Virus record (IMG/VR): IMGVR_UViG_2630968876_000001
Location: 1 to 64,000 of that record
Strand: one strand, 5' to 3'
Length of the DNA stretch: 64,000 bases
From: a virus
Lineage: Duplodnaviria > Heunggongvirae > Uroviricota > Caudoviricetes
Part shown: piece after piece, positions 3,292-60,183 of the stretch
Numbering within the stretch: position 1 is the stretch's first letter
Layout of the letters: each line of letters starts with the position of its first letter
Position numbers and translations under genes: made by a program
Notes under the pieces: generated by a model
The model's input: the letters and a program-made list of their open reading frames with translations, nothing else
Told to the model about the DNA's origin: nothing
Database searches by the model: none

Positions 3292-3750
3292 TTAGTCCTG
3301 CGTCCACTTCTCGCCCGTATCAGCACACACCACGCCATGACACACGCGCCCCTGATCCAGACGATAGGCCATGCCCCCCAGCTTTATGCGTTTGCGGCAG
3401 TGCTGCGCGCCTGACAGATAGGCATGCGGAACGGCGGAATCAATCGCCCCTTCCTCGGTGCACAAGCCGTCCTCAGCATCGCTGTAGCCGCGGGCAAACT
3501 CGCTCAGCACTTCGCGCCGATCCTCAAAACGTATTGTTTCGCCCCGGTCCTGGCAGCGGGCGTACTCAATCGCGCCATACTTCGCCAGAGTGGCAATGGT
3601 TTTGGGGTGCCTGAAAATCTCCTCGCCCCAGTAATGCCCGGTGCAGGAGTCAACGTAAGAGCCGTTGGAATAGGTGCCGATAGGATTAGAGACGTCGTGT
3701 GCGGTCGCCACTGCGACGAAGAAGTTAACGACGTTGCCGGTAACAGACAT
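3292..3750 (-). CDS. hypothetical Cys-rich protein, 152 aa
   Basis: ORF in the operon downstream of cre; several Cys/His residues (CTGH, CHGVVC). Confidence 0.45.
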   Translation of the reverse strand: MSVTGNVVNFFVAVATAHDVSNPIGTYSNGSYVDSCTGHYWGEEIFRHPKTIATLAKYGAIEYARCQDRGETIRFEDRREVLSEFARGYSDAEDGLCTEEGAIDSAVPHAYLSGAQHCRKRIKLGGMAYRLDQGRVCHGVVCADTGEKWTQD

Positions 3751-4142: not shown

Positions 4143-4168
4143 TAATTTATTTAGAATTATGTGTGTTT
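4143..4168. promoter_or_regulatory. C1-operator-like motif (taATTTATTTAGAATTATGTGTG)
   Basis: Member of a repeated motif family (see 16938, 18324, 60158, 63951). The reverse complement ...TTCTAAATAAATTA resembles the P1 C1 operator consensus ATTGCTCTAATAAATTT. Located between the cre stop and the next minus-strand gene. Confidence 0.35.
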
Positions 4169-4176
4169 CATATCGG

Positions 4177-5208
4177 TCATTCTCCGTCGAGAATCCCGGA
4201 CATTTTGCCTTTCTGGCTTTCAGAGCGGCGCAGGTAGCGCATAACGGTTTTCGGGTCAGTCCAGGTGCCTTCCTGCATGATCTGCGTGATGGTCGCGTCG
4301 CGCTCCGCCATATCCATCGCCGCGCCCACGCGCGCACTATGGCCGGACCATTTCGTGTAGCGCCCTTTATTGTCTTTAACCGGATCTTTACCCAGCAAAT
4401 CCCACGCATCTTTGAAAATCTTCTCCGTGGCCGGGGCGCTCATGGGCTTTTCCGACACGCCGGCCGTGTTGTTGTGGCGGACGGGACCGAATATCACGGC
4501 GTCGGGGCAGTTAATCAGCCCGGATACGTCCAGCCAGCGCAGCAGGTGGCCGGCGGCAGATTTGCTCAGGTGCTTTATCACGCCAGCGGCAGTCACCATC
4601 GTTTTTGTGTGGGTCAGGTTAACGATCACATGGCCGCTTTCGTCGATATCCAGATCGCGTACCCGGATGCGGCTCAGTTCAGACATACGGCACAGGGTGT
4701 TATAGGCCAGATACAGGAACGCCAGATTGCGCATATCGGTGAGTTTGTCAGACCGGCTCATGAGGTGCGACAGCAGCTGCAGATCCGAAAGCCGGAACGG
4801 TATGGCCTGTCCGGTTCGCTCGCCGCCCACCACGGCCTCGCGCTTGATGCGCTTCATGGCGCGCTGTACGTCCACGTTCAGCAGCAGCTGCGGCAGGCCG
4901 CACTGTTTGCAGAGCATGTTCATCATGGCGTAGTGCTTTTCGATCGTGCTCGATGCAAGCCCGCTTTCCGCCATAGACAGAAAGTAAATGCGGGCCAGCT
5001 CCGGATCGATTGGCAGATATGACAGGCCACGCGCATTGCACCACGTCGCCCAGCGCCGGATCACCGAAAGCAGATCGCGGAATGTATTCTCAGAATATGC
5101 GGCTTTATCGGCAATAAAGCGGCGCAGGTTATTTGCGACGTCCTGCGGCGTCAGCGTGGTTAATTCCGCCGGAATCACGCTGCTTTTAATTTCCGCTAAA
5201 TGTCTCAT
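4177..5208 (-). CDS. cre: Cre-like tyrosine site-specific recombinase
   Basis: Alignable by eye to P1 Cre along its length: LLSVIRRWATWC vs LLSVCRSWAAWC; RMSELSRIRVRD vs RIAEIARIRVKD; WSGHSARVGAAMDMA vs WSGHSARVGAARDMA; a VMRYLRR Tyr nucleophile region; ...LDGE C-terminus vs LEDGD. Confidence 0.92.
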   Translation of the reverse strand: MRHLAEIKSSVIPAELTTLTPQDVANNLRRFIADKAAYSENTFRDLLSVIRRWATWCNARGLSYLPIDPELARIYFLSMAESGLASSTIEKHYAMMNMLCKQCGLPQLLLNVDVQRAMKRIKREAVVGGERTGQAIPFRLSDLQLLSHLMSRSDKLTDMRNLAFLYLAYNTLCRMSELSRIRVRDLDIDESGHVIVNLTHTKTMVTAAGVIKHLSKSAAGHLLRWLDVSGLINCPDAVIFGPVRHNNTAGVSEKPMSAPATEKIFKDAWDLLGKDPVKDNKGRYTKWSGHSARVGAAMDMAERDATITQIMQEGTWTDPKTVMRYLRRSESQKGKMSGILDGE

Positions 5209-5804: not shown

Positions 5805-6893
5805 TTGGAACACATTATGCCTAAGTTTAGCGACGTAGAATTTGAACAAAGCTATAAACATTTCCTGCAGGTTCAGCGTGAATGGTTCGGCCTCATTACA
5901 CCTCTAATCGTGTACTCAGAGGAAAACGCCAATGGCGAAGATGCACGCCCGATTGCCTTCACGAACGACAAAAAGATTCTGGACCGCGCACAGCACCTGA
6001 TTACCGAATGGCAGCGCTTTGCAGACCTGGCGGACGCCAAGCGCGCAGAGACCCAGGCTAAAACGCTGGCCGTCCATATCTCGTGCTACTCGCCGGTACC
6101 GACGATCATGGTAAACCCGCGCAAGGTAATAGTAACCCGTTTTCCCGGAACGTCATCAGGCAAAGCCACCCGTGAGAGCATTCTGAACCGCTATCACCAG
6201 CAGCTGCGTAAGCTGGATAAGGTTCCTTTTGCTGCCGGCGCTATCCTCTCACTGAAAGAGGAAATGAAGGCCTTTGAAAACGCACCGGAAGGGGCGCTTT
6301 ACCGCCTGCGCATGAGCAACTACTTCGATACGCAGGTTATGGCGCGGTTTGACAGCCCGAACGATGAAAGAAACGTGGATAACTACCGTTACGGCGCTCA
6401 CGGCATGCTGATTTACAGCGAGTACATGGATCTTAAAACGGATTTCACGGCAAACCTGAATCCCTCCAGCGGTGCAGTATCAGTATTTGACCTGATAAAG
6501 CCGCTGCCATGCGCCGTGCTGCCGTCCGCCACTGTTTACCTGATGGACGACGTGGACGCCGCCAAGCTCCACCACAAGCAGATTTACGTCATTGAGACGG
6601 CTATCTACCAGCGCGAACGCCTGTTTAAAAAGCGCAGCGAGGCGCTGATGTTGCGCTCCAGCACGCAGGAACAGGCGCAGAAAGCGCAGGAGAAGATTAA
6701 AGCTGGCGCAGAAGCGGTTGCTGAACTGAATGACATGGATCGTGAACTGATGAACATGAAAACAGCGGCCGGCGACACTGAATTGCTGACCGTGCCGGAA
6801 ATGCGCGCGCGTTATGCAAATGAGTTTGGTCGCCGCAGTGGCCATACTCTGCAGCAGCTGGTGGAGCGTGCGCAGAAGCTCAGAAAGGTATAA
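5805..6893 (+). CDS. c1: C1-like immunity repressor (longer than P1 C1)
   Basis: Local similarity to P1 C1: YSPVPTIMVNPRKV vs YPVPNILRGVRKV; YRLRMSNYFDTQVMARF vs FRMRVHGFSETMLRVH. Position between the lox/cre and pacB-like genes on the opposite strand, as in P1. Confidence 0.65.
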   Translation: MEHIMPKFSDVEFEQSYKHFLQVQREWFGLITPLIVYSEENANGEDARPIAFTNDKKILDRAQHLITEWQRFADLADAKRAETQAKTLAVHISCYSPVPTIMVNPRKVIVTRFPGTSSGKATRESILNRYHQQLRKLDKVPFAAGAILSLKEEMKAFENAPEGALYRLRMSNYFDTQVMARFDSPNDERNVDNYRYGAHGMLIYSEYMDLKTDFTANLNPSSGAVSVFDLIKPLPCAVLPSATVYLMDDVDAAKLHHKQIYVIETAIYQRERLFKKRSEALMLRSSTQEQAQKAQEKIKAGAEAVAELNDMDRELMNMKTAAGDTELLTVPEMRARYANEFGRRSGHTLQQLVERAQKLRKV

Positions 6894-11710: not shown

Positions 11711-12118
11711 TCACATGAGCGGGGTGTTTTCTATCCTTCCCCGCATACACCTGTCCATTAGTTCCCTTGCCATCACGCATACAGAACGTAGCTCCATTTC
11801 CTTTGACTGGAGGCGGCGCTTCGTGGCGCTGGTAACAACCAGCGAATCGTAGTCAATGTCCGGGCGTCCGCGCGCTTTGAAGGTGTAGCCTTTTAACGCA
11901 TCCAGGCGGTACTGACGTGGATAAGCGTCAGGGTGTACGCAGCATTGCGCAAAAGGAGAGCGGACAAAAGAGCGCAGAATATTAGTGATGATACCGGGAT
12001 TGACTAATAAGTGCGGGTACTTTGCTTCCACCAGCCGGGTAACCTCTGCTACCGTCATATAATCACGATTGCGAACCAGCAGATCCGCCACCTCTATACT
12101 GCTCACCTTTTTGACCAT
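11711..12118 (-). CDS. hypothetical protein, 135 aa
   Basis: ORF with AT-rich upstream region containing tttaga motifs; no motif recognised. Confidence 0.4.
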   Translation of the reverse strand: MVKKVSSIEVADLLVRNRDYMTVAEVTRLVEAKYPHLLVNPGIITNILRSFVRSPFAQCCVHPDAYPRQYRLDALKGYTFKARGRPDIDYDSLVVTSATKRRLQSKEMELRSVCVMARELMDRCMRGRIENTPLM

Positions 12119-12434
12119 GTATCGCTCCGCTACGAAAACAATACATGCAATTCTAAATGATGTGAATTTTGCGTGGATTACAAAACGCGCATTTTAGAGT
12201 TTTCCCATTCAGATTTTCTTTGTGCTATGAATTTTTTACGTCTGGCTGGTTTAAGGTTGGTTAAGGTTAAGGGCTGTAATGAGGGATGGAAGCAGAGCGT
12301 AAATAGTGCTGTGCGGAGTGAATTATCTAAAATTAGTACCAAATAAAATTGAATTTTTCTACTTTGGGGTATGCGTTCCCTAAAGACTATTTTAGAAACC
12401 TGTATTCAGGGCTGGTTCAGCCAGCCCATCCAGA

Positions 12435-12833
12435 TCAGCGGTAGCTTTTCAGCAGGTGGCTAACAGTGTTCGACCAGTTTGTTACAGTGTCACGGGCTAA
12501 GCGGTGGACAACCTGGCTGTAAAGGTTATCCGGCAACGGTTCCCCGGCTTCATCCTCAAACCGTAATCCTTCTGTCGTGCCTGGCTTACTCATATTCACA
12601 CTGTAATCAAACTTGCCCGTTGCCCCGTACATGCCTATCTGCTGCTGAGCCTGCCAGGTAAAGCGCACGCCACACCCTTTCCTGATCTCAAACACTACGG
12701 TCCCTTCCACCAGCATCGCTGACTGCTTCTCACCTGTAGGCAGTGACTTATTGCGGCATGCCACCGATGTGACTTTGCAGTGATCCGCGCGCCAGCCCAG
12801 CAGCTCCAGCCCTTTGAGTTTTACCGTCTCCAT
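12435..12833 (-). CDS. hypothetical protein, 132 aa
   Basis: ORF followed by a palindrome gggctggttcagccagccc (12404-12430); start overlaps the upstream gene's stop. Confidence 0.45.
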   Translation of the reverse strand: METVKLKGLELLGWRADHCKVTSVACRNKSLPTGEKQSAMLVEGTVVFEIRKGCGVRFTWQAQQQIGMYGATGKFDYSVNMSKPGTTEGLRFEDEAGEPLPDNLYSQVVHRLARDTVTNWSNTVSHLLKSYR

Positions 12834-13411
12834 TAAATCAGTCTCCAGTCGCTTGCCAGCAGATCGGCGGTTACGGGCGTCCAGTCAGCCGTTGTCAGCT
12901 GCTCGGTGTTGGTCAGCACGAACTGAGGCATGCGCGTTACGGACGCCTGCGGATCGTGGTCAAAGAATCGCGCCGGCACGCCGTACATATCGGTGCCGTT
13001 CAGCGGGTGCCGTGTGGTGCCTCTGCTGAGGCGCAGATGCATTCCCTCTCCCCACGCTTTACGTGCCACTTTTGCGCCGTCAGAGAGCCACACATGCGCT
13101 ACGGCCATAGGCGCGCCCTCTTCCCTGAATTTCAGCATGCCCTCGTCTATCAGCTGCTCGTTGCGCAGGATCAGATCGTTCAGCTTCAGCATGGCCAGAC
13201 AGGCAGCATGATTAAGCGATTCCCCGCGGGCGGTCATGGTCAGTGCGCCTTTGCTCACCGTGGCTGACCAGTCTGTTGCGGTCTGTGACTGATGCGTTAC
13301 CACAAAGCCCAGGTGCTCCAGAGCGTTCAGCAGCGCCATATAGTCGCCGGTATAGTTGCCCGCAGCGCCGGCAATCATGCCAATCATTTCGTTTATTTGT
13401 TGATCGTTCAT
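12833..13411 (-). CDS. hypothetical protein, 192 aa
   Basis: ORF in the same minus-strand block, with stop/start overlap with the downstream gene. Confidence 0.5.
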   Translation of the reverse strand: MNDQQINEMIGMIAGAAGNYTGDYMALLNALEHLGFVVTHQSQTATDWSATVSKGALTMTARGESLNHAACLAMLKLNDLILRNEQLIDEGMLKFREEGAPMAVAHVWLSDGAKVARKAWGEGMHLRLSRGTTRHPLNGTDMYGVPARFFDHDPQASVTRMPQFVLTNTEQLTTADWTPVTADLLASDWRLI

Positions 13412-13414
13412 CGT

Positions 13415-13720
13415 TTAGTGGCCTCGTTTGGTTTTGCGCTTATGGGCGCTCTGTCTGCGCTTCTGCGCGGCCTGTCGTTTACGTTCGCGGTGCTGCTGCG
13501 CTTCTTCTACGCTGGTGGCCAGCCGCTGTATTCCTTCCTCGGCGGTCAGCTGCGGGCGGTCCGGCAGCTGCAGCGACCTGACCTGCAGCACGGGAACGGT
13601 GGGCGGCCGGCGCGCCAGCCAGGTGAGACTTCCCATCAATGCGCCCATCAGTGCGATCTTTTTCATGCTCTCTCTCTGTCGTGCAGGCGTGCAGAATCCC
13701 CGGCGATTGCCGGTGATCAA
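13415..13720 (-). CDS. small secreted basic protein, 101 aa
   Basis: N-terminal signal-peptide-like MKKIALMGALMGSLTWLA; C-terminus very basic (KRRQSAHKRKTKRGH). Confidence 0.4.
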   Translation of the reverse strand: MITGNRRGFCTPARQRESMKKIALMGALMGSLTWLARRPPTVPVLQVRSLQLPDRPQLTAEEGIQRLATSVEEAQQHRERKRQAAQKRRQSAHKRKTKRGH

Positions 13721-13806
13721 AATTCACCTGATTAATTCCGGCGCCGGGTGCGCACGGGGATGTTCTGAGGCCTGTCCCGGCGACTGGCCGGGTGGCTATG
13801 TAGGCA

Positions 13807-13908
13807 TTGTGCTGGCCGGATTTGAACCGGCGACCTTTCGCTTGTCCCTTTAACCGCCCTGCAGGCCGAATAAAAGAGCGAACGCTGCTGCCGCTGAGCT
13901 ACAACACA
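13807..13908 (-). ncRNA. tRNA-like element #1 with a ~29-nt insertion where the anticodon loop should be
   Basis: Minus strand reads acceptor TGTGTTG, D-arm GCT-CAGCGGC-AGC, anticodon-stem strands TTCGC ... GCGAA (perfect 5 bp) enclosing 36 nt, variable loop AGGTC, T-arm GCCGG-TTCAAAT-CCGGC, acceptor CAGCACA-A. No encoded CCA. Confidence 0.4.
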
Positions 13909-14351
13909 ACGATAAAAGCCCGTCTGCCGGTGCTCTTACCTGTTGGCCTGTATCAGCTGGCCACCAGCTGTGCGATCAGCCATTTATGACCGGCAAACAG
14001 TCCGGCATTCAGCAGCAGATGAAACATGACAAACTGCATCGCTCTGACTGTTTTGATGTACATGCTGGTGTCCATACTGCCTAAACCCTGATTAACTGAC
14101 TGAATTGTTCTAATCATGCCTGAATTTTCATGTCAGCGCTTATGCGTGCGTATCTGTTAGGCGTTAGTGGTGGCCGGTGCCATACCCGGCAAGTAACCTC
14201 TCAAGCGACTGGTCAACTCGGTTACTGGCGGCTTAAACCCCTATGCGGTGCGATTGATGAAGCGGGGGCCAGTCTTGCGATCGCAGCAGCAACTGCGAAT
14301 GCACCACAACGGAGAGAGCACTGAGCGGCTAATGCGCTTTCCTGTTGTGAA

Positions 14352-14375
14352 GTAAAAGGCCTCCGGAGAGGCCGG
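14352..14375 (-). terminator. rho-independent terminator after the SPFH lipoprotein gene
   Basis: On the minus strand: ggcctctccggaggcc hairpin followed by TTTT, just after the stop at 14382. Confidence 0.65.
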
Positions 14376-14381
14376 GTAATG

Positions 14382-15221
14382 CTATTTAACGCCGATAAAA
14401 GGCATTGGTGCGCTGTTGCCCATGTACTGCGGCAGCGTGCCATTCCACTTATTAATACCTTCCAGCTGCAGTACTTCCGGATTTTGGCGCAGTGCCTCAC
14501 CGCGCATGGCGATAGCGGCAGATTCAGCTTTAGCGTGCAGCATAGTTGCATCAGCTTCACCGCGGGCAATCTCGATGGCTTTCTGTGCTTCGGCTTTTGA
14601 CTGCTGAATTTCGTTTTCACGCAGCAGAGCGCGTTGAGTCGCCTCAATCTTCGCGTTAATCGACTCTTTTACCTTCGGCGGATATTCCAGATCGCTAATC
14701 CATGACAGCTTAACGATGCGAATACCCAGCGGATCGAGTTTGGATTTCAGATCGCCAGTGACCGCGTTCAGTAGCTCGGTTTTACCACCAGCAGCCAGAG
14801 AGTTAATATCCATGCGGCCGGAATGATTGATTAACGCATCGCTGATGTTCTGGCGAATGTTAATGTCGGTGATCTCTTCAACGCCTTTCCGGTACTTCTG
14901 AAAAATGGACGTTACTTTGGTCGGATCAACGTAATACTCAACGCCTACCTTTGCTTTGATATCCATTGAGTCCGCTGTCTGGAAAACAAACGGCACATCA
15001 TAGTTGTGCAGCTGGTTGAACGTCGGGAACTGATAGATTTCCTCGTTCATTGACAACCAGTAACGCCCGGTGCCGACTTCCTGCTGCTGGACACCCTTTT
15101 CATCGCCATACAGCTCAACTTTAACGCCCACAAAGCCCGTCGGCACGGTTACGCGATCGCAGCCAGAAAGTAGCAGAGACGCACCAATAGCCAGTGAAGC
15201 CAGTGCTAATTTAGTTTTCAC
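14382..15221 (-). CDS. SPFH/band-7 (prohibitin/HflKC-like) domain lipoprotein
   Basis: Lipobox LLSGC after a signal peptide. SPFH-like core (...FVFQTADSMDIKAKVGVEYYVDPTKVTSIFQKY...) and a C-terminal coiled-coil segment (QRALLRENEIQQSKAEAQKAIEIARGEADA). Confidence 0.7.
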   Translation of the reverse strand: MKTKLALASLAIGASLLLSGCDRVTVPTGFVGVKVELYGDEKGVQQQEVGTGRYWLSMNEEIYQFPTFNQLHNYDVPFVFQTADSMDIKAKVGVEYYVDPTKVTSIFQKYRKGVEEITDINIRQNISDALINHSGRMDINSLAAGGKTELLNAVTGDLKSKLDPLGIRIVKLSWISDLEYPPKVKESINAKIEATQRALLRENEIQQSKAEAQKAIEIARGEADATMLHAKAESAAIAMRGEALRQNPEVLQLEGINKWNGTLPQYMGNSAPMPFIGVK

Positions 15222-15438
15222 GCTTCGTTGCCTTACTCAGTTGATTAGAAATAACGTGCATAACGTGCTTGAGCCATTTGAGGATTAGCCATGCATAAAT
15301 CGGCATAGTGGCCAGCACAATGAATCCGGCTATGCAAAGAACGGTGTCTTTACTGGATATCAACCACGGGGCAGCGTGGCCGTAAGCCATGAATCCGACA
15401 AAAATCAGGCAAATAAATCTCAGGTAAAAGCTAATCAA
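15211..15438 (-). CDS. small two-TM membrane protein, 75 aa, overlapping the start of the SPFH gene
   Basis: Hydrophobic segments ICLIFVGFMAYGHAAPWLI and LCIAGFIVLATMPIYAWLIL; 11-bp overlap with the SPFH gene suggests an operon. Confidence 0.45.
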   Translation of the reverse strand: MISFYLRFICLIFVGFMAYGHAAPWLISSKDTVLCIAGFIVLATMPIYAWLILKWLKHVMHVISNQLSKATKREN

Positions 15439-15696
15439 ACTGCGTCCTCAAAGGTAATGCATACAGAGAGGGACACTGCGTAAAACAGAGCAACGCCCTT
15501 TTCTGCAGGTACTACCGGCGACGCTTTATCTTCGCATCACTGCGACAGGCTTTGATAACCGTTTCAAAGCCGTAAATGACCACCAGCGTGTAAATGATGG
15601 TGAGGCCTGGATGCTCTGCAGCAAACGCTAAAAACGGCATATCGTGTCCTGTCTGTTAGGGATGCTGTCTCTGATGCAACTGGTCTGTACTGAAAC

Positions 15697-15780
15697 TGGC
15701 AGTGACGGCTGGATTTGAACCAGCGACCTTCCGTACTCCTGAGTTAAAGCCGGACGCTCATTCCCCTGAGCTACATCACC
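15697..15780 (-). tRNA. tRNA-like element #2 (encoded CCA end; canonical D- and T-arms; non-canonical anticodon/variable region)
   Basis: Minus strand: GGTGATG-TA-GCTC-AGGGGAAT-GAGC-G-TCCGG-CTTTAAC-TCAGG-AGTACGGAAGGTC-GCTGG-TTCAAAT-CCAGC-CGTCACT-G-CCA. Read conventionally, the loop CTTTAAC would give anticodon UUA with a weak stem and a 13-nt variable region. Alternatively an enlarged 15-17-nt loop closed by TCCG/ACGGA. Confidence 0.4.
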
Positions 15781-16492
15781 ATAAACGGGTTGCTGTGATC
15801 GGTTTCCGTTAGCGCGATTGTTCAATGAGGCGGGAGTGAAACCCGCTTTGCCTTCGCAGCCCATCGCTGACCGCCAGCGTCGATTCGCCGGCAGGGCTTT
15901 CGCCCCGTGGATTGACTCCACAACTCCTACGGTGTGTTAAAGCAATCACCACAACGGCTGAGAGCACTGACCCCCTGCCCGGATAACGGAGCCTTTACCA
16001 GTCTCCGCCCAGTGCTCTCACCGTTGCGTGCCGGTCTTTCCCGGCTGTCACGAACTTTTTTGAGGTCTGCCGCTGACCCTGCCCTGCCACCAGCCAAATC
16101 AGCCAGTAAGCAGCGCGTCGCCTGGTGTTGACGTGTAGTGCATGGGGGGCTGGTGCCTCCAGCTGTCCGATACGGAACCTACGGACGGGATTTACCAAGA
16201 GTATATATCTGAGTTCCGCCCCGCGTGCGCATAGCCGCATTCCCCCATTTGTGAGCGTGCTGTCAGAGGCAGTTACACCCGTCGCCAGGCAGCAAGAGGA
16301 TGCCAGCACGCTCACAAATGGCGATCCCTTACGGGGATCAGGCGGGAGCTTGTTTAAGCCTCACGGGGCGTTCTATGCGCGGGATAGTCCAAAACCGCGT
16401 TCACTGCCGTGACAGGAGGGGCTACATGCCGTTCACCCTACTCATAACATGCCCGGAAAATCTGGAGACTACCGGGAGCGGCCCGTTACGAA

Positions 16493-16557
16493 CTGGTGCA
16501 GGCTGGCGGGATCGAACCGCCGACTATGAAACACTCTGCCGACTGAGCTAAGCCTGC
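16493..16557 (-). ncRNA. tRNA-like element #3 (acceptor stem, D-arm, T-arm and encoded CCA present; anticodon arm missing about 11 nt)
   Basis: Minus strand: GCAGGCT-TA-GCTC-AGTCGGCA-GAGT-GTTTCATAGTC-GGCGG-TTCGATC-CCGCC-AGCCTGC-A-CCA. Only 11 nt lie between the D- and T-arms. Confidence 0.4.
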
Positions 16558-16733
16558 TGAATTGGTGCCGGTGCATACCCGGCGCGGACACTTAGGCGTC
16601 TGGTCAACCTGTCCGCTTGCGTAAACAAAAGGGAAGAACCACCCCTGCCAGATTTGCATTGCGTCTGCCTCGCTGCTGAATCCTCTCTCCGATTCAGCCG
16701 TGAGCACACATCATGCGCTCACGGTTAAACCTG

Positions 16734-16758
16734 AAAAAAAGCCCGAAAACTATCGGGC
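16734..16758 (-). terminator. rho-independent terminator (minus strand)
   Basis: gcccgaaaactatcgggc hairpin preceded on the plus strand by an A7 run (T-run on minus). Confidence 0.6.
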
Positions 16759-16937
16759 ATTAAATGTTACCAACCAATATAAAGCGCACTCACAAAATGC
16801 GCTTTAGAGTGGGAAAAAAGACAGGCTAAACAAAATGTTACCGTCCAGCCTGATTGCACTAAATTTTTAAAGCCACGATGTTACAGCGAGAAGAAATGTA
16901 CACAAAAATACGGAAACAATCAATTAAAAATGGCTCT

Positions 16938-16960
16938 GTATTTTAGAAATGTATGTGTTT
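16938..16960. promoter_or_regulatory. C1-operator-like motif (TATTTTAGAAATGTATGTGTTT), upstream (minus sense) of tRNA-like element #3
   Basis: Member of the ATTTATTTAGAAWTRTGTG motif family, in an AT-rich non-coding stretch. Confidence 0.35.
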
Positions 16961-17178
16961 ATTTCAGGCAGCTTTTTGGCCCTTAACGACGTCTGGTATT
17001 TGGGTTTTTGAGGTTTTCAATATCGCCATTGGTTTTTGACCAGGCAATGCACCAGCTGTTAACAGCAGCGCGGATCTCGTCTACCGTGGCCTCGCTTAGC
17101 CCTTTGACCTTCACCAGTTCCGGCGGCAGCTCACCGCCCACAGCCGCCACCGTGTCATAACCGGCTTTTACCAGCGCG

Positions 17179-18255
17179 TTAAGCGCACGCGCCGGGATAG
17201 CGAGCTCGGAGACCGATGATGCGCTTGTGGAGTCGTGGAAAGTCCAGCGCCAGGCGGGTCATGATGCGCTCATGCAGTTCATCGTTGATGGCCGTGTCCC
17301 ACATAGGGAGTAAATCAGGCAGGATGCGGAATACCGGATTGCCCCATATACCCGGCACCACGTCCATTGCCAGCATCATCGCCGTGCGGATCTGGTAGTG
17401 GAAATTTGCCGTCTCAATGGACACGTCACGGATGCCGTGAAATACGCTAAGCCCGAAGTGGTAATTGTAGATATAGCAGCCCACGTCGCCGCTGCCGTCC
17501 GGCAGCTGTAGCAGGAATTGCGCCACATCTTCCTGCCCGTCGTGAAACTCCACGCGCTCTTTGAGATTGTTATGCAGAGCCGTCAGTTTAATCAGCTCAT
17601 TAGCCGTCTCACCGCGCAGGCGACGCTCTTTACCCACTTCTTTATCTGCAATATTCAGCTTCTGCTGCAGTTCCTGTATCAGTGCGCTCTGCTTTTTGCG
17701 GTCGGCGCGGTGCTGAGAAATGGTTTTGTCGCGCTCCTGCAGATCTGCCGCCAGGCGTTCAGGATTCTTGCGGCGGTAGTGTGTAAATTCCTGATTCAGA
17801 GTGGTCAGCGCCAGCTGAGCGGTAACCAGCGCACCTGCGCTGCGATCGCGGGCGTTTTCAGCATTGATAGCGCGATTTTCGGCCTCACCTTCACGAATGC
17901 GGGCTTCCTGAATGGCTTCATCAGCGGCGTTCTTCGCCTCAAGGCGAATCTGAGCTATCTCTGCGGCCAGCACGGAATGCTGGTCCAGCTCCTGCTGTAC
18001 GTGCTCCAGCGCCTCTGCCAGCACGTTGTAGGTATCAGCTTCGTGGTTAAGGCGCAGGTTGATATCAATCTGCACCTGCTCCAGCGCGGACAGGCAGTTA
18101 TCCAGCAGGCGTTTTTCTAGATCGTCGAGTTTCAGGCGCTTGCGCATAGAACTCAGCTGGCCATAGGCCGTTACAAACGTCTGGTGCAGTACTTCATCGT
18201 CAACGGGGCATTCAGGAAGTTGCTGCAGCTGCTGGAGCACATTTTGAGAAGTCAT
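17179..18255 (-). CDS. coiled-coil protein with a C-terminal globular domain, 358 aa (antirepressor-like by position and size; function unproven)
   Basis: N-terminal ~220 aa strongly heptad/charged (QQLQQLPE..., AEIAQIRLEAKNAADEAIQEARIREGEAENR). Operator-like motif directly upstream. Size close to P1 Ant1. Confidence 0.5.
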   Translation of the reverse strand: MTSQNVLQQLQQLPECPVDDEVLHQTFVTAYGQLSSMRKRLKLDDLEKRLLDNCLSALEQVQIDINLRLNHEADTYNVLAEALEHVQQELDQHSVLAAEIAQIRLEAKNAADEAIQEARIREGEAENRAINAENARDRSAGALVTAQLALTTLNQEFTHYRRKNPERLAADLQERDKTISQHRADRKKQSALIQELQQKLNIADKEVGKERRLRGETANELIKLTALHNNLKERVEFHDGQEDVAQFLLQLPDGSGDVGCYIYNYHFGLSVFHGIRDVSIETANFHYQIRTAMMLAMDVVPGIWGNPVFRILPDLLPMWDTAINDELHERIMTRLALDFPRLHKRIIGLRARYPGACA

Positions 18256-18323
18256 GGTTGGTTTCAGATCCGCTGTAAATTTGCGGCTGATTCTAACGTG
18301 AAATTAACCACTGTCTATAAAAT

Positions 18324-18344
18324 GTTTTAGAATTGTGTGTGAAT
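18324..18344. promoter_or_regulatory. C1-operator-like motif (GTTTTAGAATTGTGTGTGAAT) in the promoter region of the 358-aa gene
   Basis: Motif family member ~70 bp upstream of the 18255 start. Confidence 0.35.
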
Positions 18345-60157: not shown

Positions 60158-60183
60158 ATTTATTTTAGAAATGCATGTACATT
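60158..60183. promoter_or_regulatory. C1-operator-like motif (ATTTATTTTAGAAATGCATGTACAT) ~30 bp upstream of the plus-strand 60215 gene
   Basis: Motif family member in a divergent promoter region. Confidence 0.35.

Follow-up and report, generated by a model that had tools for sequence, protein, structure and literature searches.

Phage DNA of 64,000 nucleotides (IMG/VR record IMGVR_UViG_2630968876_000001, positions 1 to 64,000; the whole stretch is called the window here) carries three minus-strand tRNA-like elements, numbered #1 to #3, in which the acceptor stem, D-arm and T-arm are intact and a normal anticodon arm is missing. None of the three can read a codon: #3 has lost the anticodon arm, and in #2 and #1 a longer helix stands in its place. 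The window belongs to a P1-like phage-plasmid of Pantoea, and we read the elements as non-decoding descendants of the tRNA genes found in the ban-operon leader of the P1 family. The observations presented here are the anatomy of the elements, their likeness to the P1 tRNAs in sequence and gene order, purifying selection and covariation, and, at one position, a fixed slot in which unrelated cassettes have been exchanged.

Phage tRNA genes are usually explained by codon supply or, lately, by the replacement of tRNAs destroyed by host defences. In the present case, decoding was given up in every tRNA gene throughout one lineage of a classic phage family, and the tRNA body is still strongly selected.

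Anatomy of the tRNA-like elements

The three elements are:
13807 to 13908, minus strand: tRNA-like element #1, with an acceptor stem of 7 bp, a short GG-containing D-arm and a T-arm; CCA is not encoded
15697 to 15780, minus strand: tRNA-like element #2, with an acceptor stem, D-arm, T-arm, G73-CCA and an extended anticodon arm
16494 to 16557, minus strand: tRNA-like element #3 (cassette 3A), 61 nt plus CCA, of Thr type, without an anticodon stem-loop

All three give full-length matches (model positions 1-71) to the Rfam tRNA model RF00005, whose gathering score is 29 bits. Element #2 scores 50.2 bits over 15700-15780 (E 5e-9), #1 scores 45.9 bits over 13807-13908 (E 8e-8) and #3 scores 44.3 bits over 16497-16557 (E 2e-7), the E-values referring to a 4-kb region; default filters dropped #3 in the whole-window scan, and the 4-kb scan recovered it. 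On a second model, R1, built from 10 canonical P1-family tRNAs, the scores are 58.3 bits for #2, 53.1 for #1 and 54.4 for #3, as against 82-91 bits for canonical tRNAs. A pattern scan for 7/7 acceptor pairs plus a T-arm finds exactly these three elements in the surrounding region, which an initial annotation of the window had described as a coding-sparse island. That description fits 15781-16980, which is free of credible open reading frames (ORFs), and fails between #2 and #1, where there are an SPFH gene and small ORFs.

The acceptor stem is completely paired (7/7) in each element, and U8, A14 and the D-loop GG are present in all of them. The T-loops (UUCAAAU, UUCAAAU and UUCGAUC) all conform to UUCRANY and are accompanied by the G53-C61 pair. 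At the 3' end, #2 encodes G73-CCA and #3 encodes A73-CCA, in agreement with the initial count of two CCA ends among three elements, and #1 reads A73-UGC. The canonical anticodon arm, with its 5-bp stem, 7-nt loop, U33 and purine 37, is found in none. In the Rfam alignment, #1 has 35 nt in place of 6 model positions, which bears out the roughly 29 extra nucleotides first noted there, and #2 has a mismatched anticodon stem with 9 extra nucleotides. In #3, only 3 nt stand for 15 anticodon-arm positions and the D-arm is joined to the T-arm by 11 nt; the loss of the arm is thus as initially described, and only the end once placed at 16493 moves, to 16494 with the CCA included.

Whether #2 has a weak stem presenting a UUA anticodon or an enlarged arm had been left as a choice. 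ARAGORN, which calls only #2, names it 'tRNA-Stop (tta)' and makes the same call in four relatives. The two folds differ by 10.6 kcal/mol, with -29.5 kcal/mol for the extended arm and -18.9 kcal/mol for the UUA fold, and pair probabilities are 0.75-0.94 in the extended arm as against about 0 in the UUA stem. Moreover, the stem of the UUA fold would contain a C·A mismatch and two G·U pairs, and its 13-nt variable region would be unstructured. The extended arm consists of 9 bp (4+5) with one bulged A and a 6-nt loop, AACUCA, and leaves a 5-nt variable loop, AGGUC, in register with P1 trnA and #1. The enlarged, extended arm is favoured on these grounds, and an ochre suppressor was rejected. An intron-containing tRNA was likewise rejected for #1: the extra sequence (about 29 nt in #1 and about 9 nt in #2) is too short for a group I intron, which takes at least 200 nt, and no intron family matched at E<=5. 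With a notional intron removed, the loop of #1 would have C33 and U37, and its 'anticodon' varies by lineage (UUU vs CAU).

It is thus very improbable that these are unusual decoding tRNAs, whether #2 as an ochre suppressor or #1 with a short removable intron. The ARAGORN calls, the CCA of #2 and #3 and the label 'tRNA-OTHER' given by PGAP to a comparable element of E. coli are what such a view can draw on, and it is opposed by the folding of #2, by the spliced loop of #1 and by #3, which is without any anticodon stem.

The elements fall outside the families of C4, tmRNA, Y RNA and intron-containing tRNA. ARAGORN reported no tmRNA, and position 3-70 is U-A in #1 and #2 and A-U in #3, not G3·U70. 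An Rfam scan of 13300-17300 at E<=5 returned nothing credible besides tRNA, with no DicF, Y RNA, tmRNA, intron, GOLLD or ROOL. The kinship with C4 that had been considered at first is not upheld, as none of the three matches the C4 model (RF01695), which finds nothing in 13300-17300 even at E<=5; its sole match in the window is the C4 antisense RNA of this plasmid at 30981-31068 (85.4 bits).

Probable descent from P1-family tRNA genes

In P1, the promoter Pban with its C1 operator is followed by a dicF-like region, about 450 nt of non-coding sequence, trnA (Asn), trnT (Thr), tciABC, trnI (CAU) and ban. On the minus strand of the window, the order is an operator-overlapped promoter, a dicF-like hairpin, #3, a spacer, #2, cargo and #1. 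The top half of #3 is closest to P1-family tRNA-Thr (0.74-0.76 identity), that of #2 to P1-family Asn/Arg (0.78), and that of #1 to the CAU-type (0.78) and Asn (0.74) tRNAs of the family. Top-half identities range overall from 0.72 to 0.78, with a modest lead of 0.04-0.09 over other tRNAs of the family. The context of the P1 ban-operon leader explains the origin of the three elements.

For comparison, relatives were gathered with a hairpin pattern, which retrieved 4 relevant genome contigs and 119 IMG/VR contigs. Canonical tRNAs for Asn, Thr and CAU are present in the E. coli-type relatives, joined in some by Tyr, Ser and Arg. Every Pantoea-type contig carries aberrant elements only, scoring 21-60 bits on R1, and the complete relative pEuc3 has 0 ARAGORN tRNAs and two tRNA-like elements. 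This distribution shows that decoding was lost lineage-wide while the tRNA-like genes were kept.

Alteration of the anticodon arm recurs elsewhere in the family. E. coli plasmids have a 130-nt element derived from trnT, with a structured insert of about 75 nt (R1 53.6 bits), which PGAP annotates as 'tRNA-OTHER' in 6/5426 complete genomes, within a cluster Asn-Tyr-OTHER-Ser. An Enterobacter plasmid has a 128-nt element in which a structured insert replaces the anticodon arm of a tRNA body. The tRNA bodies with an insert of about 75 nt for the anticodon arm lie at:
L141 (E. coli plasmid NZ_AP022542), 2501-2633
L104, 3907-4036
L006, 4801-4928

An Arg(UCU) tRNA of the family shares its acceptor stem and T-arm with the Asn gene, which points to a constant tRNA body whose evolvable part is the anticodon arm. 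Annotation pipelines probably label such elements tRNA-OTHER or tRNA-Stop. In the literature on P1 tRNA function, phage-plasmid tRNA-like RNAs and P1 transcriptomes we found no description of them.

We also observed a 59-nt mini tRNA-like sequence in P1 (NC_005856 69518-69576; L009 19519-19577), with a T-arm and a 7-bp acceptor that includes G·U pairs. It lies right after trnT, in the loop of a long-hairpin module and antisense to the end of plp, and occurs, mostly near-identical, in about 60 retrieved P1-like contigs; with model R1 it did not reach E<0.1.

Structure conservation and selection

In #1, an irregular helix (about 45 nt; columns 24-76 of alignment A1) takes the place of the anticodon stem-loop, and in it an unpaired GGGACA and an apical G-C hairpin are both invariant. 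The structure was examined in 13 distinct variants against a cloverleaf with extended arm, with slid-partner controls and 500 shuffles. Paired cells amount to 94.9%, compared with 28-50% in the slid controls. Five pairs have changed on both sides, all of them in the arm, and one of these changes arose separately in L075. The observed covariation score was reached by 0/500 shuffles.

Divergence was measured between the window and L003; at 4-fold sites in four neighbouring genes it amounts to 43-57%. The tRNA-like part of #1 differs at 8/49 positions (16%) and #3 at 7/64 (11%), two of the latter forming one compensatory pair. The replacement arm of #1 differs at 25/53 positions (47%), and yet its pairing is kept. 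Because divergence is so low relative to the 4-fold sites and the changes preserve structure, neutral decay of #1 and #3 is strongly disfavoured, and the sequence comparison argues strongly that both are under purifying selection and are not decaying relics. Moreover, since the arm of #1 has been kept by compensatory change and its GGGACA is invariant, #1 is probably more than a cutting signal, and the released RNA probably binds a partner.

These data bear directly on the view that the elements are neutral relics, namely decaying tRNA pseudogenes of a P1-type cluster. Such a view can cite the loss of decoding, the patchy occurrence of #2, occasional unpaired cells in the T-stem, one change from CCA to UCA and the existence of a truly broken tRNA gene in the E. 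coli relative L018. Against it stand the divergence of 11-16% in the tRNA-like parts, arm changes that preserve structure, two intact acceptor strands, a fixed position and the maintenance of two armless cassettes, and we give it little credence. Nor are the elements truncated fragments of host tRNAs, as the initial annotation had allowed, since both acceptor halves are present, the slots are kept across plasmids and purifying selection is strong.

A fixed slot with exchangeable cassettes

The position of #3 is fixed. In every Pantoea-type plasmid with cassette 3A or 3B, the element starts 54-55 nt after the hairpin pattern, and the start of #3 is 9 nt past the second small hairpin of the dicF-like module. 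Cassette 3A is 61 nt long, Thr-like and without an anticodon arm. Cassette 3B is 70 nt long, has its D and anticodon regions fused into one irregular hairpin and is related to an 83-nt element of Leclercia plasmids. Both lack the anticodon arm, both retain the acceptor stem, T-arm and CCA, and each is present in both sub-lineages. Pairing has been maintained by compensatory change in the two cassettes, with an exchange of C-G and U-A at pair 6:67 of 3A and one compensatory pair in the T-stem of 3B. ARAGORN labels cassette 3B 'tRNA-Phe gaa at position 28' and the Leclercia element 'tRNA-Val aac'; both were rejected as forced fits, with a poor or absent anticodon stem.

The exchange is clearest between L099 and the window, in which the flanks are 97% and 94% identical and the cassettes 56%. 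Exchange of 3A and 3B within near-identical flanks indicates that the slot needs a generic module of acceptor stem, T-arm and CCA, and not a particular tRNA. The same swapping between lineages, together with the varying cargo beside #2 and #1 (SPFH, TerB/DUF3927 or none), could be taken to mean that the tRNA-like blocks act at the DNA level, as homology patches for the exchange of cargo modules between plasmids. Homology patches do not require base-pairing or compensatory substitutions, and the cassette of #3 is less conserved than its flanks, which makes that explanation a most unlikely one.

Organization of the leader region

The features around the elements, from the promoter downstream, are:
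16940 to 16967, minus strand: sigma-70-like promoter (CTGAAA, 16-nt spacer, TAAAAT), overlapped by the motif copy at 16941-16956
4149-4164, 12143-12158 (minus strand), 16941-16956, 18325-18340 and 60163-60178: copies of TTTTAGAAWTGYRTGT, promoter-proximal
16822-16852, 16780-16806 and 16741-16758 with a T-run, minus strand: terminator-like hairpins between the promoter and the dicF-like hairpin
16567 to 16616, minus strand: dicF-like hairpin, GCGGAC-AGGUUGACCAGACGCCUAAGUG-UCCGC, then a second hairpin GCCGGGUAUGCACCGGC, a 9-nt spacer and #3
15781 to 16493, minus strand: conserved non-coding spacer of about 710 nt between #3 and #2
about 16323-16453, minus strand: element X, a structured RNA-like motif of about 110-130 nt
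16245-16321, minus strand: long hairpin in the spacer
16219-16245, minus strand: 27-nt block shared with P1, in the spacer
15965-16026, about 14300-14346 and, as a half copy, about 13925-13945, minus strand: repeated copies of the long-hairpin module
14382 to 15640, minus strand: variable cargo between #2 and #1, with a 42-aa ORF, a 75-aa ORF and an SPFH/Band-7 lipoprotein
14173 to 14226, minus strand: second, diverged copy of the dicF-like hairpin plus the GCCGGGUAUGGCACCGGC hairpin (repeat D5), 3' of the SPFH cargo
12833 to 13411, minus strand: Tad2-like (Thoeris anti-defence 2-like) gene, 192 aa, PF11195, 46.6 bits, E 5e-12

The site at 16940-16967 is the sole promoter-like site in 13300-17400. 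A C1-operator-like motif had been noted in this area; the P1 C1 operator consensus ATTGCTCTAATAAATTT was tried and has no match in the window within 3 mismatches, and what stands is that the site belongs to a repeated 16-nt motif, TTTTAGAAWTGYRTGT, with 5 copies in the window against 0.15 expected, a chance comparison that is somewhat flattering as the pattern was derived from the same five sites. Copies sit upstream of lpa, where P1 has a C1 operator, and upstream of the 429-aa gene. A divergent homologue of the P1 C1 repressor is encoded at 5805-6893 (23% identity, E 7e-11), and the placement of its copies suggests that TTTTAGAAWTGYRTGT is probably the operator of this homologue; the failure to match the P1 consensus is consistent with so distant a repressor.

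The dicF-like hairpin has a blastn match to P1 68803-68834, in the region labelled 'dicF-like' in the P1 annotation. Its loop AGGUUGACCAnnnnCCUAAGUG is common to the window and P1, its stem covaries, and 27/30 columns are invariant among 21 plasmids. In P1, an intrinsic terminator, instead of a tRNA-like element, lies 3' of it. The second copy at 14173-14226 has no tRNA-like element after it.

Conservation continues into the spacer, where many 30-nt bins have 24-28 invariant columns in the same 21 plasmids. Element X is near-invariant in the 21 Pantoea-type leaders and also occurs in Enterobacter and Leclercia P1-like plasmids (L006 4000-4130, L007 3995-4125). It has covarying pairs, CACGG/CCGUG exchanging with CAUGG/CCAUG and GAUCCC/GGGAUC with GGCCCU/AGGGGC, and no Rfam match. 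The long-hairpin module, CAACRGGWAAGRGC...[variable loop]...GCYCUYUCCGUUGYGGUGMAUU, is common to the window and P1 with differing loop inserts, and lies in P1 (L009) at 69062-69150, 69500-69600 and 70008-70090. Judged from its sequence, it may be a double-strand-specific (RNase III-type) processing stem.

Past the cargo come non-coding modules, a 54-aa ORF, #1 and small genes towards lpa, with the Tad2-like gene downstream of #1 and an 83-aa ORF on the same strand. In relatives, the cargo slot holds TerB/DUF3927 genes, named as P1 tciA/tciB, in some and is empty in others. The leaders of relatives also contain an RprA-like RNA (L006, Enterobacter plasmid NZ_CP074151, 4394-4496; 63.4 bits against a gathering score of 70, E 2e-6), whose 3' half we take to be nearly identical to E. 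coli RprA, and, in L007, weak STnc100-like matches at 4260-4403 and 3353-3493 (36 and 23 bits).

It had further been proposed that the enlarged loops are antisense to ribosome-binding regions of window genes. RNAduplex comparison of the #1 insert, the #2 arm, the #3 linker and both dicF-like loops with 118 translation-initiation regions of the window gave best energies within the range of shuffled queries, and the proposal is not borne out for these genes.

Source plasmid and relatives

A 3.7-kb query, 13400-17100, is 100% identical to CP009882.1, a plasmid of Pantoea sp. PSNIH1. Plasmids of 90-95 kb from Pantoea agglomerans and P. eucalypti have 80-82% identity over about 45% of the query length. 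The P1-like character of the replicon is also seen in the late-promoter activator Lpa, encoded at 11711-12118, and in an annotated relative that carries a pacase, a Cre-like recombinase and tail and head genes. In a search of a phage collection, the SPFH gene alone was matched, and the tRNA-like region had no DNA match.

The same query also has 100% identity to CP060164.1 (L001), labelled as a plasmid of Acinetobacter venetianus, which suggests contamination, mislabelling or very recent transfer. In addition, the gene at 17179-18255, annotated at first as 358 aa long, is a copy of a 429-aa protein (16983-18272, minus strand) broken by a frameshift, through either sequencing error or pseudogene formation. 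An intact version is present in CP060164 and in relatives, whose annotation gives it an RNA polymerase alpha C-terminal domain.

A proposed role in the processing of an early transcript

The body has been kept without decoding and, in one element, with a conserved new arm, which implies that the tRNA shape itself is used, as a processing or stability device and possibly as an RNA carrier. The tRNA body is read at its 5' side by RNase P, at its 3' side by 3' trimming enzymes or RNase BN and the CCA-adding enzyme, and in the T-loop by modifying enzymes. What the elements retain is a 12-bp stack of acceptor and T-stem, the T-loop/D-loop elbow and, in 2/3, R73-CCA.

We tentatively hypothesize, with confidence a little short of even, that they are non-decoding tRNA-like RNAs that punctuate a long early transcript, mostly non-coding, from which the tRNA maturation machinery cuts them out. 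De-repression would yield a long, mostly non-coding minus-strand transcript, from which host RNase P and 3' processing would release the tRNA-like modules as stable small RNAs. As P1 has a terminator at the corresponding place, the cut at #3 would form the 3' end of the dicF-like hairpin RNA, and cuts at #2 and #1 would part the non-coding modules from the cargo mRNAs. The leader around the elements is rich in RNA modules (the repeated long hairpins, element X and, in relatives, the RprA-like and STnc100-like matches), and a processed precursor of several RNAs is the most economical reading of it. The elements do lie at module boundaries: the hairpin RNA and the spacer meet at #3, the spacer and the cargo ORFs at #2, and the 54-aa and 83-aa ORFs at #1; moreover, #3 has the make-up of a processing module, a fold of 7-bp acceptor and T-arm adjoining an RNA of functional type. 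Transcription, RNase P and 3' processing and all downstream functions are what we infer from sequence.

Several features weigh against this hypothesis. Three terminator-like hairpins precede #3, so that a single long transcript needs read-through or an undetected promoter; the P1 ban leader likewise contains a terminator. Element #1 encodes no CCA and its T-stem pair 49:65 is often unpaired in relatives, and one #3 variant ends in UCA instead of CCA. If the elements served only as RNase P signals, the D-arm elbow and the conserved arm of #1 would be superfluous, and processing alone is therefore insufficient. Lastly, #2 is found only in plasmids of the window type (L014, L074, L099 and L135 besides the window; five near-identical copies), and its near-invariance within this one sub-lineage leaves the case for selection to #1 and #3. 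The initial annotation read the anatomy correctly, and so it did in its general idea of tRNA-derived RNAs that do not decode and that RNase P may handle.

A related account, possible in our estimation though rather doubtful, is that the tRNA fold serves P1-like phage-plasmids as a natural scaffold for expression, with the anticodon arm as a swappable slot for structured RNA domains. The tRNA maturation machinery would deliver these, early after de-repression, as stable small RNAs acting as decoys or regulators of factors of the host or of rival elements, and not for translation. The same doubtful account would count #1, in two covarying versions, #2, the E. coli 130-nt element and the Enterobacter 128-nt element as repeated insertions.

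We regard as unlikely the view that the elements are decoys for counter-defence or host manipulation, in which tRNA-shaped RNAs titrate a factor that reads the tRNA body or the CCA end and RNase P serves for production only. Candidate targets would be tRNA-end-modifying toxins, tRNA-targeting nucleases or a tRNA-binding enzyme, and the RNAs, having no anticodon arm, would be neither cleaved nor used in translation. Phage tRNAs are known to counter tRNA-targeting defences (PMC10264068, PMC11555353, PMC11464382), and P2-OLD removes the anticodon arm of tRNA-Thr(UGU) (PMC12445682), the same isoacceptor as that of P1 trnT. The early-operon position, the Tad2-like gene downstream on the same strand and the variable accessory cargo would suit such a role, as would a D-loop/T-loop elbow and a #1 arm conserved beyond the needs of a cutting signal. 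Conversely, the tRNA nucleases described in PMC11464382 and PMC12445682 read the anticodon stem or loop, which is absent here, and no defence or toxin gene is linked to the elements, nor is there a candidate target. The interchange of the unrelated cassettes 3A and 3B argues, in addition, against the mimicry of one specific tRNA at that slot.

Comparison with known systems

The nearest counterparts are the P1 genes trnA (Asn), trnT (Thr) and trnI (CAU), with which the elements share a repressor-controlled early promoter, a common hairpin and cargo flanked by tRNA-type genes. The P1 genes encode canonical 76-nt tRNAs of 86-90 bits on R1, whereas arms are deleted or replaced here (53-58 bits), and the Thr-like and Asn-like elements stand in reversed order.

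The mascRNA is a tRNA-like 3'-end processing module downstream of MALAT1, and the C4 RNA of P1/P7 and the CI RNA of P4 are phage regulatory RNAs released by RNase P. The likeness here is a tRNA module without an anticodon loop just 3' of a structured non-coding RNA, whose 3' end it would form. Unlike those systems, cleavage is only predicted in the window, the elements are true descendants of tRNA genes in a bacterial plasmid, and they have no similarity to C4.

A bacterial Y RNA, YrlA, has an 'acceptor' stem of 7 bp and can be both cleaved by RNase P and supplied with CCA (PMC4201824). It resembles the present elements in its D/T elbow and acceptor mimic and in having part of the tRNA replaced by a long protein-binding helix (PMC4201824). 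As we read that paper, the two ends of YrlA lie in its Ro-binding stem, so that the tRNA-like part is placed otherwise; YrlA also has the motif GNCGAAN0-1G and is encoded next to rsr, the Ro60 gene (PMC4201824), whereas the ends of the elements in the window form the acceptor stem and there is no Rfam Y-RNA match. The complete annotation of the relative pEuc3 lists no Ro60 (Rsr) homologue.

Species 1 and 2 of T4 (rnaC/rnaD) are stable RNAs co-transcribed and co-processed with the T4 tRNA cluster. They offer a parallel as phage stable RNAs of obscure function, situated in a tRNA cluster and matured by tRNA enzymes, in a phage and with sequences that are unrelated, the likeness being drawn from description only.

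Ponchon and Dardel reportedly engineered a 'tRNA scaffold' in which a foreign RNA replaces the anticodon stem-loop. In element #1, the E. coli 130-nt element and the Enterobacter 128-nt element, too, the body is intact and a structured insert stands where the anticodon arm would be, though these are natural and evolutionarily maintained. If our reading is true, it would give meaning to the pipeline labels 'tRNA-OTHER' and 'tRNA-Stop', and the elements would be a natural bacterial counterpart both to the engineered tRNA scaffold and to the tRNA-like 3'-end modules known from eukaryotic long non-coding RNAs.

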